Source: Eledone cirrhosa (lineage: Eukaryota). From it: 64,000 bases of DNA. How positions within the stretch are numbered: the first letter of the stretch is position 1; each line of letters begins with the position of its first letter. Positions 1-21,539 of this stretch are shown here, one piece after another. A program made the position numbers and the translations under genes. The notes under the pieces are model-generated. The model worked only from the letters and a program-made list of their open reading frames with translations. It made no database searches and was not told where the DNA came from. The stretch covers positions 14,756,001-14,820,000 of the forward strand of contig OZ024742.1 of assembly GCA_964016885.1 (NCBI GenBank), written 5' to 3'.

Positions 1-143
1 CCAGTACTCATTTTCAGCTGAGTGTACTGGAGCTACGTGAAATGAAGTGTTTTACTCAAGAACACAACACACAACCCAGGAATTGAACCCACAACATTAT
101 AATTGTAAGTCCAACACCCTTACCACAAGGCTATGTGCCTCCA
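1..143 (-). mobile_element. 5' part of a tRNA-derived SINE
   Basis: Reverse complement of 48430-48572; A-box-like TAGCCTTGTGG and B-box GGTTCAATTCC. Confidence 0.75.
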
Positions 144-350
144 CTATTCATTTATAATGATTAACTATTATTATGGTCATTTTTGTTGGGACACATATAT
201 TTATATTGTTTCCCTTAATCTTTATTGATAATGTTTTTATTTCTGTTTAGATACAACCATCAAAAAAGTAATCATGTGGTATATTTTATTGTCAATGTTG
301 TTGTTGGCTGGCTCAGTGGAACTTGGCTCAGTACCAGAGAAAAGATGTTC
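1..350. repeat. Inverted duplicate of 48223-48572 (identical by eye; runs off the window start)
   Basis: Base-by-base comparison: position 1 pairs with 48572, and identity ends at AAAGATGTTC (350/48223). Confidence 0.92.
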
Positions 351-446
351 GCTTGATTTGGGAGCATGTAAAACTGACATTACTTGCCTTAATGATTGGT
401 TTTATTGTAAATGCAGCCCATTTTCTAAGCCAGAAGGATTTTGTTT
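274..446 (+). CDS. Cys-rich secreted peptide gene A, first coding exon (exon 251-446): signal peptide, KR site and six-Cys EGF-like spacing
   Basis: Acceptor ttttatttctgtttAG at 249-250; ATG at 274; MWYILLSMLLLAGSVELGSVPEKR-CSLDLGACKTDITCLNDWFYCKCSPFSKPEGFC; phase-2 donor TT|GTACGT at 447. A paralogous exon with the same boundaries lies at 48124-48322 (-). Confidence 0.85.
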
Positions 447-599
447 GTACGTATTCCTATATGAGACATTCTAAGTGAGACCTTTTTCAAAATAACAGAG
501 GGTATATAGCTACAGAGACACTCTATCTCTCAAACACACACACACACACACACACAGAAACACATAAACACATACAACTTACCCAATAAAACGACCAAC

Positions 600-1120
600 T
601 ATTGAAGTTGACAGTTAAAAGGTGAAAGAAGCAATCAAAAAGATGAAGAATGGTAAAGCTATGAGATCGTCAGAGATAGTTGCTGAGATGCTAAAAACAT
701 CAATCAGGTGATACAGGACAGAGTCATACCCAATGACTGGTACAGCAATACAAACTAGTAACCCTACATAGTCAATCAGGTGATACAGGACAGAGTCATA
801 CCCAATGACTGGTACAGCAGTACAAACTAGTAACCCTACATGTCAATCAGGTAATACAGGACAGTCATACGCAATAACTGGTACAGCAGTACAATCATAA
901 ATTGCTACAAGGGTAATGCTCTAGACAGGAGCAACTATAGAGGAATAAAACTATTGGACCAAGTTATGGAGGTGACAGAAAGAGTTATAGTGCAACTAAT
1001 TAGAGACTAAGTTAAATTAGGTAGAACTTGGTTTCATGCTGGGAAAAGTACTACAGACACCTTTTTAATGAGGCAACTAGAACTACAAGAGAAGTTCCTA
1101 GCCAAGAATAAACCGCTGTA
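600..1120 (+). pseudogene. Degenerate RTE-clade RT fragment with an internal ~72-bp triplication (701-900)
   Basis: Encodes VAEMLK, NCYKG, NYRGIKLLDQVM, QEKFLAKNKPL, matching the RTE RT at 25859-26746. Repeat units start near 701, 773 and 844. Confidence 0.75.
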
Positions 1121-1578
1121 ACAAGCTACTTGCCTTTGGCGTATTTATAAAATATTTGTGTGTAATTTGGCTAAGTCAGGCCAATTGTGAGCCGCGCACG
1201 AATATATATTATCAACTTCCGCCCAAACAAAGATTTTCCCACTTCTTTCGTATATATTCTCTCTTGCTGCTTGGACTTTGAAAGGAAAGGACATTATTAT
1301 GTAACGGTGAGATTTTCACTTTGGCCTGTCGGCCTCCTTGGGGCTGGCACATACCACATTCACTTCTTAACTCTAAATTGTTTGTTCCTTTGTTTGACAT
1401 GACAACTCAACTTAACTCTTTGTAATTAGTTGTGAAAATGTTAACGAAGACTTTACGACCAATTCCACAAACATTCGCTTCTCTCACACTTAACAAACCG
1501 TTACCTTAAAACAAAACCACCCACTGCTATACTTTAGCCTAACAAAAACCATACCTTTGCTGCTATGACAAAAATACA

Positions 1579-1663
<85 letters not shown>
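1579..1663. repeat. (TTA)n microsatellite; further tracts at 1855-1901 and 7931-7972
   Basis: Direct reading. Confidence 0.95.
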
Positions 1664-1853
1664 GTTGTTCTTTGAGTCTCAGTCATTGATGTTATTTAAC
1701 TGGAAAGTTTGTTGAAATGAATATCAAGCCGCTAACTGCAGCCTCAGACATTCAGGACATATCGGAGGGTTCTTGCTGTTCCCAGCAAGCATGCCTTTTG
1801 AAGTGTTCCAAAAAGCGGGGCTGGACTAATCTTCTTTAACCATCCTTGGAAAC

Positions 1854-1854
<1 letters not shown>
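1664..1854 (-). mobile_element. 3'-terminal fragment of an R4/Dong-like RLE retrotransposon
   Basis: Near-identical to 53641-53830 and similar to 30970-31160; encodes FQGWLKK...LQKACLLGTARTLRYVLN; (TTA)n on both sides. Confidence 0.85.
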
Positions 1855-1901
<47 letters not shown>

Positions 1902-2118
1902 GAATGCCATGGTTGACGGAGGCTCGGCTCTGTAAGGTATTGTAAATTTTGACCGCTATAACAATTATAAATTGTTTAAAACTTTAACCAAATTGTAGAC
2001 AAAAGCACCCTCCTCCTCGTGAGAGGGGTCTTTCTGCCCGTTATTTGGCCCTTCGGGGTTAAATAACCGCTTATTGGGGTTTTGTGCCCAATATTTATTT
2101 TAAACAAAAAAAAAAAAC

Positions 2119-4213
2119 ATGGCCACGAAAAAGAATTTTCATAGGTCACTCCCACTCATTCCGTCTTCTTCTTCCTCAATCATCACTACAGCAGAGAGAA
2201 GATTGTCTCTCTCCCTCCCTTCTTTAAATGTGTCTCTCTCCCTCCCTTCTCTTTCGCAAGCGACGAAAGAAAAGAAAAGTCTCGTGCAAAGCGTGCAAGG
2301 TTTCTCCACGACGACGACGACAGCGACGAAACAGGTGTGCGGGAAATACGAAAACCCAGTTCATTCGTCTGACGTCAGGAATAATAGCAGTAGCAGCCGT
2401 AATAACAACAGCAACAGTGACAATGAAAACAACAGTAGCAGCCGCAACAGCATCACCAGCAGCATAAACAACAACAGCATTAGCAGCAGCAACACCAACA
2501 ACAACCACAGCAACAGCGGCGGAGGCAGTAGTCGTAGTACCTGCAGCAACAACAAAAGTACCAGCAGCTCTGACGACAACAACAACAGCAGAGAAAAACC
2601 AATTATCATTTGCAGGTATTGCGAAAAACTTGGAAACAATCCTCATAACAAATGAGGAATTAGAGGAAGCGAAGAAGATGGTGACAAAGAACGGACACCG
2701 AGCAATCTGCAAGGCAGCGAAAAATTTTTTCGAAACCCAAGAGCACTGTACGGTCACGTACCGTACAGTAAGTACAAAATCCCGTAGGGTGGAAAGAGCC
2801 ACAGAGGCCCAAATACAAAAAGCCTTGGGGTCTGTGTGGCAGCGGAAAACGCACATCACCCGAGGAAAAAAATATGCCACCGTAGACGTACTTTTTGCCA
2901 CACCCCAGGAGGCAAAGGCCCAATCAGTAGTGACACTAAGGAGCGAGGAAATGGTGTTGGTGCCCTCCTACTGTGGGCAAAAAATTGTGAGGGTCAAACT
3001 GACCCACGTCCCCCCCGGAATGACCCCTTCTTGGCTGGCCGCGTCTGTCCTCGTCGGAATCGAGGACAAAACAACTGTACTGCAAGTACAGAAAAAAGTA
3101 AGAGAAGATTGGGTCGGCTCCTCCATTGAGATGCTAATCCAAACCAACCAGGAGTGCATCGAAGCTATCCCGGATGTGATAGACTTCGATAACGGCACTC
3201 AACTGCCCATAAGTGTTGAGGGCAAACGCCCGAAATGCTTTCGCTGTGGATCGAAGACTCACCTCAGGGCCTTCTGCAACGAGAAGACCCTGAGAAAGGA
3301 GAAAACCCCCCTCCTTCCGAATCCGGCTCCACGGCTACCAGCAACAGGACAAGCGGCAACCAGGAACGATAGGCCCGTGGCACCCATACCCACTCCACGG
3401 AAATCAAAAACAGCAGCAGCAGTGGAAATACTAACAACAACAACAGCAATACCAAATGCAGCTGCAACAGAGACTCCAGTGCAAACATCACCAACAACAA
3501 GTGAAAGAGTGGAGTTGGTACCCCTCCCCGACCTCACAGAATCAGACATGGAGTGTGAGGTGGGAGAGGGATGGCAAAAGGTCGCAAGAAGGCACAAACG
3601 CAGAAGCAGCGCATCGTCGCCTTTGAAAAGGGAGGAAAGAAATGAGAAAAGGGTAAAGTCTACTGCAAAGAGACCCACAGCAGCAACACCACCAACACCA
3701 TCACCACCCACACCAGCACCACCATCACCACCGGCGACAACCCCACCGCCAACAACACCTTCAACACCACCACCACAAGCACCAACATCGCAAACACAAC
3801 AACAAAACACACACACCCAGCAACAACGACAAGAAAATAGCAGAACCACACCCCACCCCCAGAAAAACAAATGCACGGCAATAAACACACACAACAAGAA
3901 ACTAATGACTTACATAATTGAACACACAGACATTTCACAACAGGACTACATAATACCAGCACCAATCAAAACGCCAACTAACATAAGACTGCTAAAAATA
4001 GCACAGAAACAATACACAAACATTAAAACGAAATTCCCCAACGCAGTTGGTGATTTCAGGGACCTAGGAGGAACCATCAATCGAAGAGTATATTCAGACA
4101 TTCTCTTAGAAGAGCCGACGACCAGCCGAAGGGACGATTCAACGGTCCCTTCACCAGACGATCAAGTGAAAAGGGATGTAAAAACCATCCCTCCTCTACC
4201 AAAAGTACGGTAA
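2119..4213 (+). CDS. Tx1 ORF1 (gag-like: RRM-like region, CCHC knuckle, P/T-rich tail); 1-nt frameshift near 2604
   Basis: CFRCGSKTHLRAFC zinc knuckle. ORFs 2119-2655 and 2630-4213 are one frame in copy 2 (KPISFAGIAKNLETILITNEE); copy 1 has an extra base (CCAATTATCATTT vs CCAATCTCGTTT). Confidence 0.85.
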
Positions 4214-4248
4214 GTGGTCTTTCCCATCTTTTCCACTCTATTTTAAAC

Positions 4249-7200
4249 ATGACCTCACTCAGAATAGGCAGCATAAATGCGCGTGGCTTGGGGTCGTCAT
4301 GGAAGCAGGGTCACCTGCTCAACGACCTCAGGTCACTAAACATAGATGTAGTGGCCATCAGCGAGACCAGAATCTCCGAAGCACGGGCCTTCGCACCGAT
4401 CTTCGGCGGCTACGATGTGTACGCATCTCCCAGCCGTCCTGGATCGGGTGGAGGAGTTGCTGTGCTTTTTCGGAGAGGTTTGGATCTCGCCATACGGGCC
4501 ATCTTCCTGGACCCAGAGGGTAAGCTGGTGGTGCTGGACGTGACCAGCGGAGACGGGCAAGCTTTCAGGCTAGTGGCCGTCTATGCCCCGACAGGAGCAG
4601 GGCGGCCTGATTTCTTCCGGCGTCTGGAGACCTTTCTTGGAACGTCCCGCTCTTTAGTGTTAGTGGGCGACTGGAACGGGATCTTAGATGCACGCTGGGA
4701 CTGTGTGGGATTAGCGGATAGGGGTGGAGGGTGCAAGAGCCTCACCAACCTGCTCAGGCGTTTTGAACTGTCTGACAGGTACCGATTGGATTTCCCGAAT
4801 GTGCCAATGTGGACTTGGACAAACCGCATAGGGTCATCCAGATCATATCTAGATAGAGTATTTTGTAGGGAAATAGATAGGTCTAGCATAGGCTGTCCAC
4901 AATTCAAGATAGTCAGCTACACGGACCACAAATTCGTGACCTGTGTGCTTGACTTAGATAGGCTTCATAGACGAGGACCCGGCTACTGGAAGCTAAACGC
5001 GTCCTTACCAGCGCGCAAGGCCTACAGAGACCGGATTAGCGAACTAGTTAAGCGGGCGTTGACGGGGGCCATCGTCAACAACAAGTGGTGGTTTGCTCTG
5101 AAAAGAGCGATTAGAATAGAATCGATTAGGTTTAGTAAGGCTTTAGCAATAGAGAAAAATAGAGCAGAGGGAGAACTAGTTAGAAAATTAGACGAGGCGC
5201 TTAGCAAAGGCATTGCGACCGACGTGCTTGCGGCGAAATTGGCCCTTGACCAATTCTTCAATGCAAAGCACGAAGGCTGCGTTGTCAGAGCTAGGGTGCG
5301 TGCTCTCAGACACGAGGCGACGAAAGCCGTTCAATGGGCCCGAGTGGCGGAGGCGCGTCGTGGCAACAAAGCCACGATCCGGTCTTTGGTGGACCACGAC
5401 GGGCGCATGCTACTCGATCCCGGGCAAATGTGTGAAGCTTTTCAGCGACACTTCGCTCAGCTGTTCGGGGGCAGCGGGGGGCCGGGTAGAGGGATGGACT
5501 TTAGTGTCTACCTCGACGGACTGCCGCGGCTCTCGGCCACTGAGGCGAGGTGTTGCGAAAAGCCGATAACAGCCGCTGAAGTACGGGAGGCAATGACTGG
5601 CTGCACAAGGGGTAAATCGCCTGGTTTGGATGGTCTGCCCTATGAACTTTACGTACAGATGCCAGACTTGTTCGGAGGCCTCTTGGCGGACGTCTACTGC
5701 AACTGGCAACAGAACGGGAGAATTCCCAGTTCTGTGAGCCGAGGAGCGGTGGCACTGCTGAGAAAGGATCCGAACAAGGGGGATAACATAGACAATTTCC
5801 GGCCCATAACTCTGCTAAACACAGAGTTTAAGATTTTGGCCAAGGTGCTAGCAAAGAGGTTGGCGCTTGTCGTTGGTGGTCTGGTGGGAGAGGCGCAGAC
5901 ATGCGCCATTCCCGACAGATCCATCCACGACAACCTCCACCTCATGCGATACATCGTAGAGAGGGTAGCTAGGGAACCTGGCACGGGTGGGTCCTTGATC
6001 AATTTAGATCAGTCGAAAGCTTTCGATAGGGTCGACCATCGTTACCTAGCGGCAGTCCTGAGGGCGGCTGGCTTTGGGCCCGTCTTCAGAGGCTGGATCG
6101 CTGCCATGCACAGCGACATCTGCTCTGTGGTGAGAGTGAACGGTCACCTGTCGGAACCGTTCAACATCATGCGCTCGGTCCGCCAAGGATGTCCCCTCTC
6201 GTCCCTCTTGTACGTATTGACTCTCGAGCCATTACTGCACAAACTGGAGACGTTGAGGGGAGTCCCGCGCGAACTAGGATGCGGAAGATCCGTGTCAGCA
6301 TATGCGGACGATGTCACCGTAGTGGTGTCGAACGCCAAACACATCGAGGCGATCGGCACTACACTAAGAGAATACGAAGCGGTGACAGGAGCAATGATCA
6401 ACCAGGAAAAGTCAGTGGGCCTGCAGCTCGGCACCTGGAGAGGCAGGTCCATGCCGTCCAACAGCGTCGTCGGGCGCTGGACGGACGGACCGGTTAAATT
6501 GCTAGGGGTCTGGTTCGGTCCGGACCTCCAGACGGACAAAAACTGGGACGAGGTGACGAGCAGGGTGGCTTCTCTCACCCAGAAATGGGCGGAGAGGAAG
6601 CTATCCCTGAAAGGTCGAGCGGAGGTGGCTAACGCGTACATCGCGTCTGTCATCTGCTACCGCCTAACCGTCGTACCTTGTCCTAAGCCTCGCCTGACTG
6701 CGCTGGAGCGTTTGCTCTTTCGCTTTTTGTGGAAGGGACGTGCTCCGATGGTCAGGCGGTCCATCTGTTGTCAACACCCGCTACGTGGAGGGCTGGGCAT
6801 GCCGTGGCTGATGATGCGCAGGCACGCGCTCAGGCTACGACATCTCCACCTCTTCCTCGACGGTGATCAGGTGTGGTCGCCGTTTGCTAGACGCGTTTTT
6901 CCCCAGCTCGTTTCCTTGACGGAGCTGCAGTCCTGGGTCAAGCGAAGACCGAGAGGGAGCGCCTGGAGACTGGAATGTCTTCAGGCGCTCACAGCCCTCG
7001 ACCAATCGGGCAATGTGATCGGTGGAAACTCCACCTCGGCGTTCTATAGAGGATTAGTGGAGGGGAAGAGCGACGACGTACTTGGGGAAACTCTAGGCGT
7101 CGACGAAAATCAACTAGCCAATCTCTTCGGAAGAACTTTCGGGCCAGGGCCTATGGACAACTTCCAGAAATCTCTGGCCTGGCAGTGCTACCGAGGAGCC

Positions 7201-7668
7201 TTGCCAGTTCGGGATAAACTCTACAGGCATGGAGGTGCCGTCAGCCGGGCATGTCCGAGATGCGCGCAGGGCGACGAAACCGTCCTGCACGCACTCGTCC
7301 AGTGTCCGAAAATTGCTGACTTGTGGGTTTATGTCGAACACCTGCTGTCGCGTTTAGGACGGATCCAGCTATCATCTGAGTCTATCGTGAGGATTGCCCC
7401 GCCCTCCTCCTTTAGCCGGGAAGGGCAGGCAGTTTTTATCTGTCTGGTGGCCATGGCGAAAGAGATAGTATGGTGGACACGTTTGAAAGGGCTGAAGACG
7501 AGCACTTACCTCTTCGGTGATGCTCTGATTGACTTTTTCAAATTTCATTTGAAAAGGAAAATCAGAGTAGAGAAGGAAGTGCTCTCTTCCCAGCATTTTG
7601 TTGAAAGATGGGTGAGAGAAGCAAGAATGGCCCGAGTGAATGGGCCGACTCTGAGTATATATCTGTAA
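4249..7668 (+). CDS. Tx1 ORF2: apurinic-like endonuclease, reverse transcriptase and C-terminal zinc finger; intact, 1139 aa
   Basis: INARGL, ISET, GDWN, YLDRVF, TDH (APE); SPGLDG, FRPITLLNTEFKI, DQSKAFDRVDH, RQGCPLS, YADD (RT); CPRC...HALVQC. Confidence 0.96.
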   Translation: MTSLRIGSINARGLGSSWKQGHLLNDLRSLNIDVVAISETRISEARAFAPIFGGYDVYASPSRPGSGGGVAVLFRRGLDLAIRAIFLDPEGKLVVLDVTSGDGQAFRLVAVYAPTGAGRPDFFRRLETFLGTSRSLVLVGDWNGILDARWDCVGLADRGGGCKSLTNLLRRFELSDRYRLDFPNVPMWTWTNRIGSSRSYLDRVFCREIDRSSIGCPQFKIVSYTDHKFVTCVLDLDRLHRRGPGYWKLNASLPARKAYRDRISELVKRALTGAIVNNKWWFALKRAIRIESIRFSKALAIEKNRAEGELVRKLDEALSKGIATDVLAAKLALDQFFNAKHEGCVVRARVRALRHEATKAVQWARVAEARRGNKATIRSLVDHDGRMLLDPGQMCEAFQRHFAQLFGGSGGPGRGMDFSVYLDGLPRLSATEARCCEKPITAAEVREAMTGCTRGKSPGLDGLPYELYVQMPDLFGGLLADVYCNWQQNGRIPSSVSRGAVALLRKDPNKGDNIDNFRPITLLNTEFKILAKVLAKRLALVVGGLVGEAQTCAIPDRSIHDNLHLMRYIVERVAREPGTGGSLINLDQSKAFDRVDHRYLAAVLRAAGFGPVFRGWIAAMHSDICSVVRVNGHLSEPFNIMRSVRQGCPLSSLLYVLTLEPLLHKLETLRGVPRELGCGRSVSAYADDVTVVVSNAKHIEAIGTTLREYEAVTGAMINQEKSVGLQLGTWRGRSMPSNSVVGRWTDGPVKLLGVWFGPDLQTDKNWDEVTSRVASLTQKWAERKLSLKGRAEVANAYIASVICYRLTVVPCPKPRLTALERLLFRFLWKGRAPMVRRSICCQHPLRGGLGMPWLMMRRHALRLRHLHLFLDGDQVWSPFARRVFPQLVSLTELQSWVKRRPRGSAWRLECLQALTALDQSGNVIGGNSTSAFYRGLVEGKSDDVLGETLGVDENQLANLFGRTFGPGPMDNFQKSLAWQCYRGALPVRDKLYRHGGAVSRACPRCAQGDETVLHALVQCPKIADLWVYVEHLLSRLGRIQLSSESIVRIAPPSSFSREGQAVFICLVAMAKEIVWWTRLKGLKTSTYLFGDALIDFFKFHLKRKIRVEKEVLSSQHFVERWVREARMARVNGPTLSIYL

Positions 7669-7928
7669 ACTAAAGGTGGAAAACTGGGAGAGGGCACTTG
7701 CCTTGGTGGTCAGGGTCATTGTGGCTTTTTACTGGGCTTTCTCCACAAATGTCCCTCCGAAGTCTCCCCCCTATTGGGGAATTTTTCATTGTTATTTTCA
7801 TTGTTATTTTTGTTACATCCTCTGTTTTTGTTTTTTTACACGCAGAAATGCCCATTTGTACCGTCCTGCATTGTCCTGCACTGTCCTTAATGTCTACTTT
7901 ATGTAAACCCTTGTGGTTAATAAAGAAA

Positions 7929-7972
<44 letters not shown>

Positions 7973-8563
7973 GAATGCCATGGTTGACGGAGGCTCGGCT
8001 CTGTAAGGTATTGTAAATTTTGACCGCTATAACAATTATAAATTGTTTAAAACTTTAACCAGATTGTAGACAAAAGCACCCTCCTCCTCGTGAGAGGGGT
8101 CTTTCTGCCCGTTATTTGGCCCTTCGGGGTTAAATAACCGCTTATTGGGGTTTTGTGCCCAATATTTATTTTAAACAAAAAAAAAAAACATGGCCACGAA
8201 AAAGAATTTTCATAGGTCACTCCCACTCATTCCGTCTTCTTCTTCCTCAATCGTCACTACAGCAGAGAGAAGATTGTCTCTCTCCCTCCCTTCTCTAAAT
8301 GTGTCTCTCTCCCTCCCTTCTCTTTCGCAAGCGACGCCAGTCAAGAAAAATCACGTGAAAATCATGGAACATTTCTCCACGACGACGACAATGACGAAAA
8401 AGGTGTGCGGCAAATACGAAAACCCATTTCATTCGTCTGACGTCATGAATAATAGCAGTAGCAGCCGTAATAACAGCAGAAGCAGCAACAGTGACAAGGA
8501 AAACAACAGTAGCAGCCGAAACAGCATCAACAGCAGCATAAACAACAACAGCATTAGCAGCAA

Positions 8564-8598
<35 letters not shown>

Positions 8599-11500
8599 AC
8601 CACAGCAACATCGGCGGCGGCAGTAGTCGTAGTACCTGCAGCAACAACAAAACTAACAGTAGCTCTGACGACAACAACAACAACAACAGCAGCAAAGAAA
8701 AACCAATCTCGTTTGCAGGTATCGCAAAGAACCTGGAAACCATCCTCATAACAAATGAGGAATTACAGGAAGCGAAGAAGATGGTGACGAAAGCCGGACA
8801 CCGAGCAATCTGCAAGGCAGCCGAAAATTTTTTCGAAACCCAACAGCACTGTACGGTTACGTACCGTACAGTAAGCACAAAATCCCGTAGGGTTGAAAGA
8901 GCCACAGAGGCTCAAATACAAAAAGCCTTAGGATCTGTGTGGCAGCGGAAAACGCATATCACCCAAGGCAAGAAATATGCCACCGTAGACGTGCTTTTTG
9001 CCACACCCCAGGAGGCAAAGGCTCAATCCTTAGTGACCATAAGGAGCGAGGAAATGGTGTTGGTGCCCTCCTACTGCGGGCAAAAAATTGTGTGGGTCAA
9101 ACTGAATCACGCCCCCCCCCCGGGATGGCCCCTTCTTGGCTGGCCGCGTCTGTCCTCGTCGGAATCGAGAACAAAACAACTGTACTGCAAGTACAGAAAA
9201 AAGTAAAAGAAGATTGGGTCGGCACCTCCATTGAGATGTTAATCCAAACCAACCAGGAGTGCATCGAAGCTATCCCGGATGTGATAGACTTCGATAACGG
9301 CACTCAACTGCCCATAAGTGTTGAGGGCAAACGCCCGAAATGCTTTCGCTGTGGATTGAAGACTCACCTCAGGGCCTTCTGCAACGAGAAGACCCTGAGA
9401 AAGGAGAAAACCCCCCTCCTTCCGAAACCGGCTCCACGGCTACCAGCAACAGGACAAGCGGCAACCATGAACGATAGGTCCGTGGCACCCATACCCACGC
9501 CACGGAAATCAAGAACAGCAGCAGCAGTGGAAGTATTAACAACAACAACAGTAATACCAAATGCAGCTGCAACAGAGACTCCGCTGCAAACATCACCAAC
9601 AACAACAAGTGAAAGAGTGGAGCTGGTACCCCTCCCCGACCTCACAGCATCAGACATGGAGTGTGAGGTGGGAGAGGGATGGCAAAAGGTCGAAAGAAGG
9701 CACAAACGCAGAAGCAGCGCATCGTCGCCTTCGAAAAGGGAGGAAAGAAATGAAAAAAGGGTAAAGGCTACTGCAAAGAGACTCACAGCAGCAGCACCCA
9801 CACTAGCACCACCATCACCACCGGCGACAACCCAACCGCCAACAACAACAACACCTTCAACACCACCACCACAAGCACCAACATCGCAAACACAACAAAA
9901 CACACACACCCTGCAACAACGACAAGAAAATAGCAGAACCACACCCCACCCCCAGAAAAACAAATGCACGGCAATAAATACACACAACAATAAACTAATG
10001 ACTTACATAATTGAACACAGACATTTCACAGCACGACTACATAATACCAGCACCAATCAAAACGCCAACGAACATAAGACTGGTAAAAATAGCACAGAAA
10101 CAATACACAAACATTAAAACGAAATTCCCCAACGCAGTTGGTGATTTCAGAGACCTAGGAGGGACTCTCAACCGTAGAGTATATTCGGACATACTCATAG
10201 AAGAGCCGACGACCAGCCGAAGGGACGATTCAACGGTCCCTTCACCAGACGATCAAGTGAAAAGGGATGGAGAAACCATCCTTCTTCTACGAAAAGTACG
10301 GTAAGTGGTCTTTCCCATCTTTTCCACTCCATTTTAAACATGACCTCACTCAGAATAGGCAGCATAAATGCGCGTGGCTTGGGGTCGTCATGGAAGCAGG
10401 GTCACCTGCTCAACGACCTCAGGTCACTAAACATAGATGTAGTGGCCATCAGCGAGACCAGAATCTCCGAAGCACGGGCCTTCGGACCGATCCTCGGTGG
10501 CTACGATGTGTACGCATCTCCCAGCCGTCCTGGATCGGGGGATGGAGTTGCTGTGCTTTTTCGGAGAGGTTTGGATCTCGCCATACGGGCCATCTTCCTG
10601 GACCCAGAGGGTAAGTTGGTGGTGCTGGACGTGACCAGCGGAGACGGGCAAGCTTTCAGGCTAGTGGCCGTCTATACCCCTACAGGAGCAGGGCGGCCTG
10701 ATTTCTTCCGGCGTCTGGAGACCTTTCTTGGAACGTCCCGCTATTTAGTGTTAGTGGGCGACTGGAACGGGATCTTAGATGCACGCTGGGGCTGTGTGGG
10801 ATTAGCGGTTAGGGGTGGAGGGTGCAAGAGCCTCACCAACCTGCTCAGGCGTTTTGAACTGTCTTACAGGTACCGATTGGATTTCCCGAATGTGCCAATG
10901 TGGACTTGGACAAATCGCATAGGGTCATCCAGATCATATCTAGATAGAGTATTTTGTAAGGAAATAGATAGGTCTAGCATAGGCTGTCCACAATTCAAGA
11001 TAGTCAGCTACACGGACCACAAATTCGTGATCTGTGTGCTTGACTTAGATAGGCTTCATAGACGAGGACTCGGCTACTGGAAGCTAAACGCGTTTCTCAA
11101 TAGAGAAAATAGAGCAGAGGGAGAACTAGTTAGAAAATTAGACGAGGCGCTTAGCAAAGGCATCGCGACCGACGTACTTGCGGCGAAATTGGCCCTTGAC
11201 CAATTCTTCAATGCAAAGCACGAAGGCTGCGTTGTCAGTGCTAGGGTGCGTGCTCAGACACGAGGGGACGAAAGCCGTTCAATGGGCCCGAGTGGCGGAG
11301 GCGCGTCGTGGCAACAAAGCCACGATCCGATCTTTGGTCGACCACGACGGGCGCATGCTACTCGATCCCGGGCAAATGTGTTAAGCTTTTCAGCGACACT
11401 TCGCTCAGCTGTTCGGGGGCAGCGGTGGGCCGGGTCGAGGGATGGACTTTAGTGTCTACCTCGACGGACTGCCGCGGCTCTCGGCCACTGAGGCGGAGTG

Positions 11501-14240
11501 TTGCGAAAAGCCGATAACAGCCGCTGAAGTACGGGAGGCAATGACTGGCTGCACAAGGGGTAAATCGCCTGGTTTGGATGGTCTGCCCTATGAACTTTAC
11601 GTACATATGCCAGACTTGTTCGGATGCCTCTTGGCGGACGTCTACTGCAACTGGCAACAGAACGGGAGGAAAGTTCATAGGGCAGACCATCCAAACCAGG
11701 CGATTTACCCCTTGTGCAGTCAGACATTGCCTCCCGTACTTCAGCGGCTGTTATCGGCTTTTTGCAACACTCCGCCTCAGTGGCCGAGAGCCGCGGCCGT
11801 CATGTCGAGGTAGACACTAAAGTCCATCCCTCTATCCGGCCCGCCGCTACCCCCGAACAGCTGAGCGAAGTGTCGCTGAAAAGCTTCACACATGTTCCCG
11901 GGTTTAATAATAATAATAATTGTTTCTACTTTAGGCGCAAGGCCAGCAATTACCCAGTGCATTACTGGTACTTTATTTTATCGACCCCGTAAGGATGAAA
12001 GGCAAAGTAAACCTCGGCGGGATTTGAACTCAGACGTAACTATGCTGGAAAGCATAGCGTCCGACTCTCTAACGATACTGCCAATCCACCACCGCGATTA
12101 ATAATAATAATGATTTCATTTATTAGCCAATAGGGCTGACATGTAGCGGACAATACAAAGACAGGGACAGTGGGGGTTTACAATAAGGTCGAGTAAAAGT
12201 GCACAATGGCAAGACTAATTTAACAATGAAGATATAAAAATATAAAATAAACTATGCATAAATATGACAAAATAAATCATGACATCGTAGAGAGGGTAGT
12301 TAGGGAACCTGGCACGGGTGGGTCCTTGATCAATTTAGATCAGTCGAAAGTTTTCGATAGGGTCGACCATCGTTATCTGGCGGCAGTCCTGAGGGTGGCT
12401 GACTTTGGGCCCGTCTTCAGAGGCTGGATCGCTGCCATGCACAGCGACATCTGCTCTGTGGTGAGAGTGAACGGTCACCTTTCGGAACCGTTCAACATCA
12501 TGCGCTCAGTCCGCCAAGGATGTCCCCTCTCGTCCCTCTTGTACGTATTGACTCTCGAGCCATTACTGCACAAACTGGAGACGTTGACGGGGCCGCGCGA
12601 ACTAGGATGTGGAAGATCCGTGTCAGCATATGCGGACGATGTCACCATAGTGGTGTCGAACGCCAAACACATCGAGGTGATCGGCACTACACTAAGAGAA
12701 TATGAAGCGGTGACAGGAGCAATGATCAACCAGGAAAAGTCGGTGGGCCTGCAGCTCGGCACCTGGAGAGGCAGGTCTATGCTGTCCAACAACGTCGTCG
12801 GGCGCTGGACGGATGGACCGGTTAAATTGCTAGGGGCCTGGTTCGGTCCGGACCTGCAGACGGACAAAAACTGGGACGAGGTGACGAGCAGGGTGTCTTC
12901 TCTCACCCAGAAATGGGCAGAGAGGAAGCTATCCCTAAAAGTTCGAGCGGAGGTGGCGAATGCGTACATCGCGTCCGTCATCTACTACCGCCTGACCGTC
13001 GTACCTTGTCCTAAGCCTCGCCTGACTGTGCTGGAGCGTTTGCTCTTTCGTTTTTTGTGGAAGGGACGCGCTCCGATGGTCAGGCGGTCCATCTGCTGTC
13101 AACACCCGCTACGTGGAGGGCTGGGCATGCCGTGACTGATGATGCGCAGACACGCGCTCAGGCTACGACATCTCCACCTCTTCCTCGACGGTGATTAGGT
13201 GTGGTCGCCGTTTGCTAGACGCATCTTTCCCCAGCTCGTCTCCTTGGCGGAGCTGCAGTCCTGGGTCAAGCGAAGACCGAGAGGGAGTGCTTGGAGACTG
13301 GAATGTCTTCAGGCCCTCACAACCCTCAACCAGTCGGGCAATGTGATTGGTGGAAACACCACCTTGGCGTTCTATGGAGGATTAGTGGAAGAGCGACGAC
13401 GTACTTGGGGAAACTCTAGGCGTCGACGAAAATCAACTAGCCAATCTCTTCGGAAGAATTTCGGGCCGGGGCCTATGGACAACTTCCAGAAATCCCTGGC
13501 CTGACAGTGCTACCGCGGAGCTTTGCCAGTTCGGGATAAACTCTACAGGCATGGAAGTGCTGTCCGCCGGGCATATCCGAGATGCACACAGAGCGACGAA
13601 ACCATCCTGCACGCACTTGTCCAGTGTCCGAGCATTGCTGACTTGTGGGTTTATGTCGAACACCTGCTGTCGCGTGTGGGACGGATCCGGCTATCAGCTG
13701 AGTCCATCGTGAGGATTGCCCCGCCCTCTTCCTTTATCCGGGAAGGGCAGGCAGTTTTTATCTGTCTGGTGGCCATGGCGAAAGGGATAGTATGTTGGAC
13801 GCGTCTGAAAGGGCTGAAGATGAGCACTTACCTCTTCGGTGATGCCCTGATTAACTTTTTCAAATTTCATTTGAAAAGGAAAATCAGGGTAGAGAGGGAA
13901 GTGCTCTCTTCCCAGCTTTTTGTTAAAAGATGGGTGAGAGAGGCAAGAATAGCCCGAGTATGTGCCTGTAAATTGAAGGTGGAAAACTGGGAGAGGGCAC
14001 TTGCCCTGGTGGTCAGGTTCACCGTGGCTTTTTTTAATGGGCTTTCTCCACGATGGCCCTCGGAAGTCTCCCCCTATTGGGGAATTTTTCATTGTTCCTT
14101 TTTTGTTACATCCTCTGTTTTTGTTTTTTTAAACACGCAGAAATGCCTATTTATACCGTCCTGTATTGTCCTGTACTGTCCTTAATGTCTTACTTTGTGT
14201 AAACCCTTTTGGTTAATAAAGAAAGCATTATTATTGTTAT
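7973..14240 (+). mobile_element. Tx1/L1-clade LINE, copy 2 (degenerate, rearranged)
   Basis: Same 5'UTR. ORF1 frameshifts near 9115 (poly-C) and 10020. ORF2 has a ~145-bp deletion at ~11095, an inversion/insertion at 11669-12280 and several stops. 3'UTR with AATAAA and a short (TTA) tail. Confidence 0.92.
11920..12097 (-). mobile_element. tRNA-derived SINE, second family; related copies at 22257-22370 (+), 28735-28880 (-) and 30757-30940 (+)
   Basis: Reverse complement has B-box GAGTTCAAATCCCGCC and body CCTTTCATCCTTACGGGGTCGATAAAATAAAGTACCAG. Confidence 0.8.
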
Positions 14241-14245
14241 TTTGC

Positions 14246-14672
14246 TAAACTGCTATATTTAGCTTTTGTTGATCTAGAAAAGGCCTTTGACAGTACCTCA
14301 CTCTATTATCTGGTGGCCCTTAAGGAAATTAGGCATAGAAGAATGACTTGTTACAGCAGTGTAAGGCATTTACAGAGGAGCTGTCAGTAAAGTGAGAGTA
14401 GGAAATGAGTTTAGTGAGGAATTCAAGTTACATGTAGGAGTTCATCCAGGTTGGGTAGCCCACTACCATTGATTATAGTTCTCCAGGCCATAACAGAGGA
14501 GTTTAAACATGGCTGCCCTTGAGAACTTCTCTCTGCAGATGATTAGGGACTTACAGCTGAATCCATAAAAGAACTAGAATAAGTTCCGACTATGGAAACA
14601 GAATTTGGTGTCAAAAGGTCTGAGAGTAAACTTAGCCAAAACTAAAGTGCTAGTAAGTAGAAGAGAAGATAG
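14246..14672 (+). pseudogene. Degenerate RTE RT fragment continuing 600-1120
   Basis: LYLAFVDLEKAFD...GLRVNLAKTKVLV; resumes where the 600-1120 fragment stops. Confidence 0.75.
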
Positions 14673-14744
14673 GACTTATTCCAACTCCCCCTGTTTATTC
14701 CACCTCACCCACTATTATTTGGGAGCTCAGAGTATATATATATA

Positions 14745-14940
14745 TATATATAACGAAGGAGTTGTGGTACGGAACCAGATGGACCATAATGCACCAGAGT
14801 ACTCAATACTTAGGGTAGTAGAGTGGGTAATAGGAAAATGTATGACCCCGACGGCAGAGCTAAATCCGTCAACGGCTATTTCAGTCCAGAAATAGCCATC
14901 AAAATGGCTTGAGCTCTGCCATCGGGGTCATACATTTTCA
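14745..14940 (+). mobile_element. (TA)n-embedded element with a terminal long hairpin; copies at 17083-17275 (-) and 27934-28128 (+)
   Basis: Shared leader ...GGAACCAG.TGGACCATAA.GCACCA.AGTACTCAATACTTAGGGTAGTAGAGTGGGTA followed by a ~105-115-nt palindrome. Confidence 0.75.
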
Positions 14941-14950
14941 TATATATATA

Positions 14951-15697
14951 CGAGGTGTGTCAGAAAAGTTCCAGGACTGATGTCACAAAAGATTTATTTC
15001 AAACCCAAACTTCACACTAAGAGTTTTCACCTTCAAAGTAAACCCCCCGGAGTATGTAACTGTAATCTTAAACGAACTAAGGGAGAAATTAGGAATAAGA
15101 GGGATCAGATGTTGTTTACTCGAGAGAAGACTACGTTGGTACGGTCACGTGATGCGCATGAAAGACGACAGCTGTATAAAAAAGTGCAGGGCGATAAAAA
15201 TAGACGGTAGCCACGGAGTAGGCAGACCCAGAAAAACCTGGGACGACTTGATACATTCCGACCTCACACACTTACACCTCTCCAAGACAATGTCACTGGA
15301 CCGAGATCTTTGGCGCTACACAGTAATACAGAAGACCCGCCTTACCGAAGTAGGCACCTCTAACAAAAATATCCCCCCGTCCCACTACCCCCACCCCATC
15401 CACACCACCCCTTTCAATGTAAAGTTATGTTGGTACCACAACATCCAGTCCGATACAAATGAGGTCGTGTAGGTGTCCCGACAAAAAAAAAAAATACACA
15501 GTCCACGCTGTAATGTGGCCGTGTAGGTAACACGGTAAAAACCTCCAGTCCAAACTGTAAACATGGTTGGTGTTAGGAAGGGCATCCAGCCGTAGAAAAC
15601 CTGCCAGACAGTCCTATACGAGCAAGGCAACCAATCTTGCCTCAAGTGGGAAAATTCCCGTCCAAACCCATGCTAACGTGGAAGATGGACGTTAAAC

Positions 15698-15740
<43 letters not shown>

Positions 15741-16508
15741 AGCTCTCTGCAGCGATCAAACTTTTTTCTTCAGAATTTTATATACATGTCCTCTGTTTCA
15801 GGTCGTCAAGCAATGAGCACAGAGCAACGAACGGTTGGGGAAAACTCCGTCAGAAGCACTGGGATTGCTGCAAGTGTATGGAGCTGAGACGATGCCACGC
15901 TCACGTGTTTTTGTGTGGTGCAAGAGGTTTAAAGAAGGACGCGAGGACGTGGAAGATGACCCCAGGAGTGGAAGGCCCACAACAACCAGGACTGAGGTCA
16001 ACGTTGAGCGCGTCAGGCAGATGGTGCGTAGCGATCGTCGGCTGACTGTTTGACTGATGGCAAATGAGCTGGGCATGAATCGGGACAGCGTCTGGAAGAT
16101 TCTCACTGCAGATTTGGACATGCGGAAAGTCTGCGTGAAGATGGTGCCAAAACTGCTGAACCATGACCAGAAGGGTCGACGCATGCAAGTGTGCCAGGAC
16201 ATCCTCGAGCGTCTTGAAACCGAACCAGACTTGCTAGGGACAGTCATCACCGGTGATGAGTCATGGATCTTCGAGTACGCCCGGAAGGGACCCGTTTTGA
16301 AGACGTGGACGACATCAAAAAGGCCCTGACGACGGAACTGCGGAGGATCCCGGAAGAACCTTTCCAGGAGTGCATTCAAGCGGGGAAGAAAAGGATGAAA
16401 AAGTGCATTAGACTCTAGGGGGGTTACTTTGAAGGAGAAAACTGTTAGTGTGAAGTTTGGGTTTGAAATAAATCTTTTCTGGCATCAGTCCTGGAACTTT
16501 TCTGACAC
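14951..16508 (+). mobile_element. Internally deleted mariner-family transposon relic interrupted by an RTE 3' fragment
   Basis: ~65-bp TIRs (GTGTCAGAAAAGTTCCAGGACTGATG...CAAACCCAAACTTCACACTAA and its reverse complement at 16445-16508); transposase remnants WCKRFKEGREDVEDDPRSGRP, MVPKLL, ITGDESW; (TA)n flanks. Confidence 0.85.
15062..15740 (+). mobile_element. RTE LINE 3' fragment with (GAT)n tail
   Basis: RRLRWYGHVMRM...GRPRKTW; near-identical to 24745-25450 (-). Confidence 0.85.
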
Positions 16509-16593
<85 letters not shown>

Positions 16594-17272
16594 TATAGAT
16601 ATATATATATATAGAGAGAGATATATTGGATATAGATATATAAATACGGCTCCTTAATTGTAGAGCTAACTCTGTTGAAAGGAATCGACTGCTGTTTCTA
16701 GTTGTCGATAACCCTATTCACGCCACTGAGACGAAGCTACTATGATGTGTAAATACAACACGTGGTAATAGCCAGCTGAAGATTTGAACTTGTAGTGTAA
16801 ACATGGATTGTTGGAAATTTTCTTCCTTGTTGAAAATCCAAAATATCCACTTCCGTGGTTTACCATCTGATTAATTGGTGAAATATATTTCTTTAATGGA
16901 ATATATAGAGGGAAGATTAATCATATTATAAGATATCTATTTTTGAAGTTCTAGTCAACTTTATTTAGTTACCTACCTAGCTATGTGTGGTCACACACTT
17001 GTAAAATTTATCTCCTGTGATTATTCATGGTTATATATATGTTAATCAATTTCTAGTTATTATATATATATATGTGTGTGTGAAAAGAGTCAGGACCCCG
17101 ACAGTTGTGCTCCGGCCGTTTCGACAGCTAGATCCGAACTAACCCAGCTGGGTTAGTTTAGATCTAGCTCAGCCGTCGGGGTCCTGACTCTTTGCCTACT
17201 ACCCACTCTACTTTAAGTATCGAGTACTCTGGTGCGTGATAGTCCACCAGGTTCCTTACCACACTTTCTTTG

Positions 17273-17326
<54 letters not shown>

Positions 17327-17524
17327 GAGAGGTATAGAGATTGTTTTAGCGAGAAGCTAACAGCACTCTATAACATATATGCGACTATAACGTCAAGATG
17401 GGAAAAGTAGTTAACGTAAGATTTAGGAAAGATAATTCAAACTCATCTCAAAAGAGAATCAGGATACAAATTCATCCACAGAATTTAGTGCAATCCAGGG
17501 AAAAATCAATAGACCTTTAACTCA

Positions 17525-17612
<88 letters not shown>

Positions 17613-17619
17613 TTATATA

Positions 17620-18913
17620 CAGGGTGTGGACGATATTTGTTCGCAATTTTCAACTGCTAATTTTATGCAAATTATTTTTACTTCCGTTGTCACTCTTGTC
17701 TTCATAAAAACAGTGACTATATTTCCATTATTTATTTTCAGAATAATTGATTATGAATAATTTTGAACCTCCAAATTTGTGGAAGAGACACGGAGTTCTT
17801 CTTGGAATCCGTGCCGGGAAGACAAATAAAGAAATTTCAGACTTTCTCAGTGTCAGCAGGAGAATGGTGGAAAAGGTCAGAAGGGAATTGGAAGATTCAG
17901 GATTCGACTACGAAGCAACATCAGAGAGGAAAACACATGATCAACGATCTGACGCCTTCAGAACGCCTGAGTTCGTTGCTGAAGTTCAGGATATCATCAA
18001 CAATGAACCTAGCAAGTCGATGCATGCCATTGCAAGGAAGAAAAACATGGATGAAAAGCTCATTAGGCTGGTTGTACATGAAGACATTCGCTACGTTTCA
18101 TACAAGATGAGGAAAAGACAATTTCTTTCAAAGGCGATGCAAGAAAAGCGACTGAAGCACGTAAAGAAGCTGATAAACAAGTTGAAACACCCACTGGAGC
18201 CAGACATGCTGTTATTTTTCTCCGACGAGAAAAACTTCTGCCAAGACCAGATGATCAACTCCCAGATCAACAGGTGGCTCGCTGTCTCATCCAAAGACGT
18301 GCCCAGAGTCATGCAGACAAAGTTTCCAGCGACAACATTGGTCTTAGTTGTCGTCAGCAGTCAAGGTGACGTCATGCCACCTCACTTCTTCCCTGAGGGC
18401 CTCTAGCTGAACACCGATGGCTACATCCGCGTTCTGAGCGAGGTAGTAAAGCCCTGGATCGACCAGTTAGCTCCAGGTAGGCCGTACGTGTGGCAGCAAG
18501 GCTCAGCGCCCTGCCATACCAGCCGAAAGAACCCAAGCCTGGCTGTCAGAGAACTTTGTTGACCACACTTCACCTGACGTCTGGCCTCCCAGCTCGCCTG
18601 ACTGCAACTCCCTCGACTTCTTTGTGTGGGGCGCAGTGGAACAAGACACCAACAGACCTAGCTGCAATACGAAAGACGATCTGAAGGCCAGGATCACAAT
18701 TGCCTTTAGGGGCCTAAGTCGGGGGACAGTGACAAAGGCCTGTAGCCGGATCCGAGGCCGTCATCAAAGCCAATGGCGGGTTTATCGAGTGAGATCGAAA
18801 GAACAAGTGATGAAGACAAACTGATCCAAATTTGATAAATATATCTTAAAAATAAAACTACTGTGTTACTTTTTCCTAGTTACTGTTTCTTGCGAACAAA
18901 TATCGTCTGCACC

Positions 18914-18916
<3 letters not shown>
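17620..18916 (+). mobile_element. Tc1/mariner DD37D (maT) transposon, full length, transposase disrupted
   Basis: 27-bp TIRs CAGGGTG(TG/CA)GACGATATTTGTTCGCAA with TA flanks; FSDEKNF; QQD...SPDCN(P/S)LD with 37 residues between D2 and D3 in the two-copy consensus; stop at 18404-18406 and frameshifts. Confidence 0.92.
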
Positions 18917-18968
<52 letters not shown>

Positions 18969-19176
18969 AATGAAGTAATTCCGTCGGAAAAGTCCAGGAG
19001 AAAAGAGTGCTCTATGTAGGTAACAGAGCTTAATAGTTATGTAATAAACAACACAAGGCAATTATTCCATTTACCAGTGGTTTCTTAAAAGCAAAAAGTT
19101 TTGCTTTCAATCATCAGTATATATATATATAATGACTGTTACATATAGTATCATTTATCATATTTTCTTCTTACAG

Positions 19177-19219
19177 GAGTAGCACACTAATTTTAGGGCG
19201 CCAACCTACTTGCTGTCAG
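19177..19219 (+). CDS. Cys-rich peptide gene A, second coding exon (43 nt), (L)SSTLILGRQPTCCQ
   Basis: ttttcttcttacAG|GAGTAGC...TGCTGTCAG|GTAAAA. Continues the phase-2 frame without a stop. A homologous 43-nt exon lies at 39459-39501 (-). Confidence 0.8.
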
Positions 19220-19279
19220 GTAAAATAATAAAACATTTTGTTTTCTGTGTCTTCTGCTTTGGGTTTCATCCATCTCAAT

Positions 19280-19280
<1 letters not shown>

Positions 19281-19350
<70 letters not shown>
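19281..19350. repeat. (TAG)n microsatellite
   Basis: Direct reading. Confidence 0.95.
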
Positions 19351-19352
<2 letters not shown>

Positions 19353-19619
19353 CTTTAGTATGGTGTCTAAAGTAACACAATATCAAACCTCTACCAATTC
19401 TACCAAGACAACATACTAGTAAAACACAACAATGTACTGTTACAATAATTTTATTTATATACCTTCCAAATTATAAATGTTATTGATCGTAGTTTTTGTT
19501 GTTGCTGTCACATGTTATAAGCAAATTTTTGTTTGAGGTGAAACTGGACCAACAGACTTACAAGAAACTGGGCCAACATTTAGCAAATTCACACAGACTT
19601 ACAAGAAACTGGGCTAACA

Positions 19620-20160
19620 TTTAGCAAACTCTCCCAGATTTACATGAAGTAGCTTCTCTTGTTGGTCTCCATCTTAATAAAGGTAAAACTGAGTACATCT
19701 CAAATTTATCTGCTCAAACCACCCACAAAGCACAAGATGGAGGTGAAATTAAAAAAGTTAAAGATTTTAGGTATCCTGGTTTTTGGGTCCTGAACTCTGG
19801 AAAAGATTTAAATACCAGAAACACCCAGGTGTGGTTAGTCATGCTTGACAGAATCTGGCTCTGTTTCTATCTATCAAATTCCTCCAAAATAAGACTCTTC
19901 CAAGTTACTATAGAACCAATTCTACTTTATTGTAACTTGGACACTTACTATCAAACAACAAAAGTTCCTCAATGGAGTATATACATCCTTGTTGTGTCAG
20001 GCTGAAAACATAAACTGGAAGCAATATAAGACTCTAGCAGAGTTATATAATAGTCTTCCTCAAATTTATAATTTTGTGTAAAAGAAGAAGGTGGGGTTTG
20101 TTAGCCATTGCCATCACACTTCACATGAAGCTGTGTCTCCTTTAGTACTTTAGGAACAAA
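19620..20160 (+). pseudogene. Highly degenerate non-LTR RT C-terminal fragment (RTE-like)
   Basis: VGLHLNKGKTEYI, EIKKVKDFRYPG, IRLFQVTIEPILLY and GFVSHC remnants. Confidence 0.55.
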
Positions 20161-21007
20161 CATCTGTCAAAACCCAAAGAGGTTGTAAGCTTATCCCAGT
20201 GGAAGGAAGCCACAATAGAGGATGACTGAGAAAGACCTGAGCAGAGGTTGTGAGAGTAGACCTCAAATTACTAAGACTGGCAGAGGAGATGACGAAGGAA
20301 TAAAACAAGTGGAGAGATGCTGTGCTGTGAAGGACTCATCCAACTCTTGCAAGCATGGAAAAGTGGACATAAAAACTATGATGATGATGATGATGATGAT
20401 GATGTCATAGCCAGAAACTCTGGTATTGATGACCAGGATCTAGGCAATGTAATGGGCAATAGGTTTATGTAAGGTGTGGGGATGTATCATTAAGTCTGTT
20501 TTACTTGAAGTCACAAAATAATGATGTTGTTTAGTGGACCAATGAATTATTAACCAGTAGGTTTAGTTAGTAGTTTGTGGTGACAGACAATCAGCAAGAT
20601 AACAATCAGCTTAGAACAATTTAACCAGTGTATATATATATATAGTGAAGGTGTGTGGCTTACTGGTTAGAGAATTGGATTCACAATTGTGAGGTTGCAG
20701 GTTTAATACCAGGACTGGGGAATGTGTTATGTCCTTGAACAAGACACTTTATTTCACATTGTTCTTCCTGCCAGGAGTTGTGACTGGTAGATAGTATCTA
20801 TAACAGAAAGACCAATGAAAACATTGTTTCCTTGGTCCAATTTGATGAGTTTCACCCTATTTAATAAGTGATTGAGGTTAGATCTTGTCAATAGTGAACA
20901 CATTTCAAATTTTTTTAATTTGCCAATCTTCTTATGTCAACCACTTTGTTTAATCATCAAAAGTGTATCTAATAAAATTACTGATTCCATTTTCTTTTTT
21001 ATTTCAG

Positions 21008-21180
21008 TGTTAGTTTTCACAGTTCCACAAAAATCTGAAAATCCAGTTTCCAAATGCCTTTGCCACCCACAAAATGTCTTCAGAGCGTCTAATAAAATCT
21101 ATGCCATTTTTCCTGAATTTCAAAGAATGATGTTTTTTTTCTTCTTTTTCTATTAACAACATGTAATTCAATAAAATAAA
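21008..21180 (+). CDS. Candidate terminal exon of gene A (TGT TAG = C-stop, then 3'UTR)
   Basis: Strong acceptor tttcttttttatttcAG at 21006-21007; phase-0 TGT TAG; AATAAA at 21091 and 21170-21180. No counterpart was found for gene B, so this is tentative. Confidence 0.35.
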
Positions 21181-21224
21181 ATGTTAACATTATTTTCTCT
21201 CCATAATTATTATTATTTGTTGTA

Positions 21225-21520
21225 GCATATGGCCTAGTGGTAAGTGTGTTAGACTTATGATGATAATACCAAAGGTTAGATTCCTGTGCTGGGTTGTGCG
21301 TTGTGTTCTTGAGCAGCATACTTCATTTCACATTGTTCCAGTATACTCAGCTGAAAATGAGTACTGTCCATAGCTGGGGGTTTAACCTTGTGATCGAATG
21401 GCATCCTTTCAAGGGGGAGTCTTGTATCCTCAGTCACTTAACACCATGGAAACCAAGGTAAGCACCTAATGAACCTCCAGGTTTGGGACATCCTTGTGTG
21501 GCTAATAAAGGAATCAATGT
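21225..21520 (+). mobile_element. tRNA-derived SINE; related copies at 20648-20765, 26945-27300, 30258-30540 and 48430-48690
   Basis: A-box TGGCCTAGTGG, B-box-like GGTTAGATTCC, conserved body TGT(G/T)T(T/C)CTTGAGCAAGACACTTTATTTCACATTGCTCCAGT. Confidence 0.8.
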
Positions 21521-21539
21521 TGTTGTTGTTGAAACAACT

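Follow-up and report, generated by a model that had tools for sequence, protein, structure and literature searches.

How can two genes carry the same several hundred bases without a single difference, when the greater part of each encoded peptide has diverged strongly? The question is raised by a locus of Eledone cirrhosa (assembly GCA_964016885.1, genome 3.0 Gb) that we analyzed in a window of 64,000 nucleotides (contig OZ024742.1, positions 14,756,001 to 14,820,000). Positions are given relative to the window (C3 position minus 14756000), and negative positions lie upstream of it. The two genes, here named A (plus strand, ATG at 274) and B (minus strand, ATG at 48299), are tail-to-tail paralogs approximately 48 kb apart. 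The answer that we favor, with a probability of roughly three in four, is that one recent non-allelic gene-conversion event between these paralogs wrote a block of 589 bp, consisting of the end of an intron and the leader.

An initial annotation of the window had reported that bases 1-350 are identical to the reverse complement of 48223-48572, and no mismatch was found here. It had also suggested to extend the alignment upstream. After the neighboring stretch of the genome was added, the other boundary of the tract was located at A -238 and B 48811, which gives an exact run of 589 bp (A -238 to 350, B 48223 to 48811) within a wider match of 614 bp at 98.7%. The block ends abruptly on either side. 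On the right, mismatches set in at position 351 (TCG in A, TCA in B) and are dense from 354. In windows of 30 bases across this right edge the identity falls from 30/30 to 22/30, 14/30 and 15/30, respectively. The edge lies inside one exon, at codon 26, two codons into the region with six cysteines (six-Cys region). The collapse includes synonymous sites, as had been claimed: none of 22 degenerate codons for identical residues differs in the leader and 8 of 11 differ in the six-Cys region (Fisher p = 1.2e-5). Chance is excluded, since zero differences over 589 bp have p ~1e-27 under a divergence of 10%. The 95% upper bound for the divergence of the block is 0.5%, and by its sequence the block would be about as young as the tandem array to which gene A belongs (units 0.08-0.47% apart).

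The composition of the block is informative as well. In total, 421 of its 589 bases (71%) match dispersed repeats. From the left, it is composed of a 120-bp element resembling a miniature inverted-repeat transposable element (MITE), a repeat resembling a short interspersed nuclear element (SINE), the right arm of an outer inverted-repeat element, 48 bp of intron end and 100 bp of exon. The exact identity begins at the outer end of the MITE-like element. The label SINE-like is our assumption, based on abundance; the repeat has a weak tRNA match below threshold (E 0.41), and the Rfam search gave sub-threshold matches only. Neutral sites of all three kinds (synonymous, intronic and old repeats) are thus included in the tract, in the form of degenerate leader codons and repeat-derived bases. 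Because the repeats are old, with 89% identity to the best other SINE-like copy, independent insertion does not explain the identity. Positive selection alone, already considered insufficient in the initial annotation, cannot give 589 identical bases which are mostly repeat DNA.

Upstream of the ATG the block extends for only 512 bp. When repeats had been masked (61-83% of each stretch), no common first or downstream exon was found, and no other non-repeat sequence common to A and B was found in the 22-49 kb on either side. With this short upstream reach, the repeat content and the failure to find a shared first exon, the block gives no support to a promoter-plus-leader cassette, which had been proposed to serve variable mature-peptide exons. 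Such exons were not found either, as leader and six-Cys region form a single open frame and one predicted exon in both genes, and only two mature types, A five times and B once, were found by five genome searches. The conversion looks like a one-off and not like a cassette system. No further paralogs were detected in 60 stretches of 10 kb or by the five genome searches. Two weak look-alikes of the Cys region (C5, E 0.96; C28, E 3.8) were not counted as paralogs and may be chance matches or decayed copies. The C5 look-alike reads NKHKC like B, with a stop soon after.

Outside the block the similarity is far lower: 589/589 identical bases compare with 60/80 in the 3' flank and approximately 50% in the six-Cys region. 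After the first cysteine, 51-56 of 99 coding bases differ between A and B, depending on gap placement. The proportion of synonymous differences (pS) in the six-Cys region is 0.82-0.96 and saturated, and the proportion of nonsynonymous differences (pN) is 0.42-0.48 (33 codons). A ratio of nonsynonymous to synonymous rates (dN/dS) above 1, for which the paralogs were to be compared, was not seen in these 33 codons with saturated synonymous sites. Apart from the cysteines, A and B have 7 of 28 residues in common, and the nine other pairs with or among homologues of Octopus bimaculoides and Octopus vulgaris share 5-9 of 28-30.

The initial annotation had found no obvious orthologous sequence in the downstream introns. 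This has to be revised, since the first ~90 bp past the last Cys-Leu align at 60/80 with a score of 37, which was reached by 0 of 300 shuffles (mean 13, maximum 28). Beyond the stop of A, 41 of 58 aligned bases agree (1/300 shuffles). This 3' flank, either intron or 3' untranslated region (UTR), is ~25-30% diverged and contains indels. Its homology makes A and B old whole-gene paralogs. Together, a saturated pS and a block diverged by at most 0.5% agree with the earlier view of old mature regions and a recent homogenising event between inverted paralogs. Synonymous sites of the six-Cys region look more diverged (pS >0.8) than the 3' flank (~25%), which could reflect an older conversion of the flank or small numbers.

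To place the shared leader in context, a profile of both proteins was compared with 1.84 billion representatives. Four matches were obtained and three were kept: A0A0L8IEN1 and A0A0L8IDK4 of O. bimaculoides and CAI9727362.1 of O. vulgaris (E 5.5e-9 to 1.2e-5). The fourth, a green alga protein with PAN repeats, was dropped as a chance match. The three homologues, all uncharacterised predictions, have a hydrophobic leader, six cysteines in register, a proline after Cys5 and FC at the end in common with A and B. They differ in starting six codons further upstream, at a Met (MYKRESM / MLQREAM) that A and B lack (TIKKVIM at 256-276), in the absence of KR before Cys1 and in leaders only 33-46% identical to that of A/B. 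Among each other their leaders match at 12-15 of 24-25 residues. Between A and B the leader agrees at 24/24 versus 8-11 of 23-24 across species, in comparisons with homologues that may or may not be orthologs. The leader is not fixed across the family, and only 15/25 leader residues agree between the two paralogs of O. bimaculoides, contrary to the idea that one leader is shared across paralogs. Since KR is not kept in the three homologues, the "start of the mature peptide", to which the switch had been assigned, is uncertain.

We propose that a break arose where the intron carries nested inverted repeats together with a microsatellite, or close by. It would have been repaired from the inverted paralog, with the conserved leader and the shared repeats serving as homology, and the tract would have stopped two codons into the six-Cys region, as homology falls to ~50% there. 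Repair that depends on homology would be expected to stop where homology collapses, without any special device. Tracts that ran on into the mature region might in addition have been removed by selection. The predicted outcome is a pair of very different peptides behind one signal sequence. As donor, A is slightly favored because of its five copies and its complete outer repeat arm: the left arm of the outer element is complete in A (-294..-237), whereas in B ~20-25 bp are left, interrupted by two small indels. A single site inside the block, -156, varies among the A units. Here B matches A2, A4 and A5 and not A1 and A3, but the comparison with other repeat copies was uninformative as to the polarity of this site.

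The additional copies of A lie upstream and form the context outside the window. Gene A ends a row of five copies in direct orientation, with ATGs at -130607, -97348, -65041, -32974 and 274, in an array (C3:14,624,759-14,778,682; window -131241..22682) of units of 32-33 kb each. All five A reading frames are identical. Over 12-30 kb per pair, simple repeats excluded, the divergence between units is 0.08-0.47%, so they are distinguishable copies. The left breakpoint of the array is at -360, where the unit junction shows the microhomology ATTATG. Only ~100 bp separate this breakpoint, which is beside the nested inverted repeats and the TG/TA microsatellite, from where the tract begins on the left (-238..-263), and a single conversion event leaves this closeness unexplained. 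Units 2-5 are without the native upstream DNA of unit 1 and so may lack promoter and first exon. The native flank of unit 1 contains (TG/TA)n, TATGC, ATATTTA and CATAAT in the same order as B, and this shared order of microsatellite and short words may be a weak sign of old orthology. Unit 5 ends at ~22682 in a microsatellite, without the 15-kb tail of units 1-4 (window -15417..-361), the end of which was found nowhere else in the genome search.

The array and B are located in one gap-free stretch; across the 264 kb examined, the assembly is interrupted once, at 65807-66006. In run X2, possibly derived from the sample that was assembled, a contig of 459 bp covers A 150-530 without a difference. 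Its depth of 32.4 compared with 4.6-10.9 for the seven other listed pieces fits several A copies, though it gives no copy number. For the region of B (47560-49400), the bin 48118-48179 is uncovered in all four runs X1, X4, X5 and X6, and the X1 leader contig stops fitting B at 48223. This hole neither confirms nor refutes the B junction, since a short branch of low depth next to a leader of high depth could have been lost when contigs were simplified. Run X6 comes from a related species. Two of its contigs contain the leader, with 8/84 and 10/84 differences to the leader of A/B; intron-end variants differ between contigs and A 358-448 has no cover. Three X6 contigs match the 3' flank of A (458-530) with 11-14 differences in 66-72 bases (~80-83%). 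Two of these have ~200 further letters in front which do not fit A at 80%, a hint of other mature variants. In runs X10 and X20 no contig matched A 150-530.

Several points weigh against a single conversion event. The junction of B is documented by the assembly alone, and the homology of the left flank is weak (~25 bp, microsatellite and short AT-rich words), so that a non-homologous left junction is possible. From a single assembly the direction of transfer is at best suggested and a crossover keeps a small probability, and two sequence types are few for a GENECONV-style test. Furthermore, pN below pS gives no support for selection on the mature region, and the exon structure is predicted from splice-like words only. 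For the vasopressin/oxytocin genes, a similar exon identity in shark and coelacanth was argued to reflect purifying selection (PMC2656470). Purifying selection cannot cover the identity here, because the block is mostly repeat DNA.

Other events at the same place have to be considered. Recombination in the leaders could have turned around the DNA between A and B, so that the two genes exchanged their upstream flanks with the promoters, and left a conversion tract at both breakpoints. A perfect 589-bp repeat in inverted orientation is a substrate for such an inversion, and the locus is unstable, with the array start ~100 bp from the tract edge and a unit 5 without the 15-kb tail. However, nothing in the single assembly requires an inversion, which moreover would have to predate the array since four more A units carry the block in direct orientation, and we regard it as improbable. 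There is also a small chance that the true leader of B is similar but not identical and was overwritten in the consensus during assembly or polishing. There are five copies of A for one of B, variants with more than ~95% identity can be lost in contig assembly, and the assembly is the sole support of the B junction. Yet the same assembly resolves five 32-kb units 0.08-0.47% apart, including a single-base difference inside the block, and a repeat of 589 bp is far shorter than these units. Additionally, a single X1 contig covers 48242-48303 without a difference at a threshold of 80%, so no leader of 80-93% identity was seen there.

A template switch is similarly hard to favor. In this case a piece of A of ~610 bp would have been copied before the mature region of B with homology at the right junction only, replacing the intron end of B. 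Truncated junctions with indels are typical of replicative template switching, and the left arm in B (~20-25 bp, two small indels) is found directly beside (TG)n(TA)n. On the other hand, the order of the native flank of A1 matches B and fits old orthology with deletions, and the outcome would hardly differ from conversion. Least credible is a recent duplication followed by extreme acceleration of the mature region through selection or local hypermutation, as has reportedly been proposed for conotoxins. The six-Cys pS of >0.8 against ~25% in the 3' flank would agree with it. But the 3' flank itself is 25-30% diverged with indels, nothing else is common to A and B at high identity, and the mature divergence of A and B equals that between species.

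A broader scenario would account for the neighboring edges. The nested inverted repeats of the intron, together with its microsatellite, could be a break hotspot from which both the five-copy amplification (edge at -360) and the conversion of the leader (edge at -238 to -263) were launched. Exchanges recurring at this spot would then attach the same leader again and again to hypervariable EGF-like peptides, and inversions might exchange their upstream promoters. These peptides would belong to a secreted family that is restricted to octopuses, may serve venom or defence and is still polymorphic in the population. We consider this scenario doubtful.

Table 1. Features of the A/B locus in window coordinates
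Feature	Position	Strand	Remark
Exact block in gene A (unit 5), part in window	1..350	+	continues 239 bp upstream of window, to -238
Full exact block in gene B	48223..48811	-	589 bp
Older homology left of block, ~20-25 bp, two small indels	48812..48830	-	remnant of outer inverted-repeat arm, beside (TG)n(TA)n
120-bp element, 28-bp terminal inverted repeats (MITE-like)	48692..48811	.	best other copies 76-92% over parts
High-copy repeat, SINE-like	48428..48691	.	in-window counterpart in A 1-145; best other copy 89% over part queried
Right arm of outer inverted-repeat element	145..202	.	left arm at A -294..-237
Unique pyrimidine-rich stretch ending TTTAG	203..250	+	predicted splice acceptor of 5' UTR intron, from sequence
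Gene A leader: hydrophobic predicted signal peptide and short spacer ending KR	274..345	+	24 amino acids, identical in B
Gene B leader, 24 amino acids	48228..48299	-	sequence
Gene A six-Cys region, C-x6-C-x5-C-x6-C-x-C-x9-C	346..447	+	sequence
Gene B six-Cys region, spacing 6-5-6-1-10	48123..48227	-	single copy in genome search
Gene A 3' flank	448..535	+	homologous to B 48030-48122, 60/80
Gene B 3' flank	48030..48122	-	counterpart of A 448..535
Tandem unit 5, part in window	1..22682	+	starts at -360; units 1-4 upstream

The unspliced products of A and B have 66 and 59 amino acids, respectively. Their common leader consists of 24 residues, a hydrophobic stretch followed by SVPEKR. Donor-like words are found at the same place in both genes. 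In A a possible donor GTACGT starts at 447 and the unspliced frame stops at 472-474, and in B a possible donor GTAAGT at 48123 contains the stop TAA, so a further downstream exon is possible. The predicted net charges of the two six-Cys regions are -1 and +3. From this anatomy, a secreted ligand, a defence peptide or a venom peptide is a natural guess.

One homologue of O. bimaculoides is labelled "EGF-like domain-containing protein", and six cysteines, C-x-C at positions 4-5 and a spacing of 6-5-6-1-9/10 are EGF-like traits. The Pfam EGF cut-off was not reached (B 14.4 bits versus 21.5), and A and the three homologues gave no match. A single-sequence model (predicted local distance difference test, pLDDT, 66.7) contained a beta hairpin. 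Many of its weak Foldseek rows are EGF domains, none with E below 3.4, and VIA gave no Z of 2 or more. Sequence searches of the PDB had best E values of 0.45 and 0.099 (NELL1 EGF). The ESM Atlas returned small Cys-rich peptides and toxins with best scores of 0.82 and 0.87, all below 0.9 and leads only, and word-index protein searches found no relatives, a longer one giving 40 candidates with none at E 1 or better. The EGF-like character would therefore be a resemblance only. A literature search found no title on this peptide family or locus, although title listings are no proof of absence from print. A preprint lists 27 cephalopod salivary superfamilies of unknown function with 822 transcripts (bioRxiv 10.64898/2026.02.02.703354), and the A/B family may already be among them.

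Further repeats were observed in the window. In unit 5, two tandem copies resembling a long interspersed nuclear element (LINE) are ~93% alike (1857-7945 and 7928-14241). The first carries open frames of 581 (2468-4210) and 1204 amino acids (4054-7665) and seems to be specific for this unit. An inverted pair, 94% alike, flanks the midline between A and B (17641-18878 and 29000-30259) and carries a transposase-like frame, presumably Tc1/mariner-like. Upstream of B a 10-bp-based minisatellite is present (49865-51441), and a 42-bp satellite of ~140 copies (58193-63995) is running toward the assembly gap at 65807.

The mechanism as such is already known; the instance in a little-described octopus peptide family is new. 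The closest precedent is the bovine vasopressin/oxytocin pair, whose conversion is said to have been reported by Ruppert et al. in 1984. These genes are oriented tail-to-tail as well, and their identical part, 197 bp in the exon plus 135 bp in the intron, is read as recent conversion (PMC2656470). Both cases concern precursors of secreted peptides in which a piece of exon and the preceding intron are identical (100 and 489 bp here). They differ in that the bovine tract covers the neurophysin exon downstream of the hormone, whereas the tract described here covers the leader and ends inside the exon, and in that one partner is a five-unit array.

Divergence peaks under gene conversion are described for human red/green opsins and Drosophila duplicates (PMC3924837, PMC2588116). 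Homogenised non-coding DNA beside a diverged functional segment is common to these genes and A/B, but there both flanks of the peak are still undergoing conversion, and here only the 5' side is homogenised, opposite a 3' flank diverged by 25-30%. Conversion occurs near the start of the secreted part in rodent Esp pheromone peptide genes (PMC3477143). These likewise encode secreted peptides with a similar signal and proximal end and a fast decay toward the 3' end; they have ~30-bp tracts in many paralogs instead of one 589-bp tract and two types. Duplication, inversion and conversion together are described for Drosophila glue genes (PMC10835880). With regard to overall layout, A and B have a conserved leader and Cys frame with variable loops. 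Precursors of the conotoxin/defensin type have a conserved signal and a hypervariable, Cys-framed mature region, and in this A and B resemble them. Conotoxins differ by an intron between propeptide and mature region (PMC3425536). No such intron is predicted in A/B, and there is no sequence link.

For work on these genes, phylogenies or primers based on the leader would mislead at A/B. As the block forms a perfect inverted repeat of 589 bp, inversion of the interval is testable in populations. The value of the locus lies in a very recent five-fold amplification of one family member together with a clean, datable tract of probable conversion whose edges are both located to the exact base. It also points to an octopus family, uncharacterised so far, of small peptides with six cysteines, very variable loops and predicted secretion.
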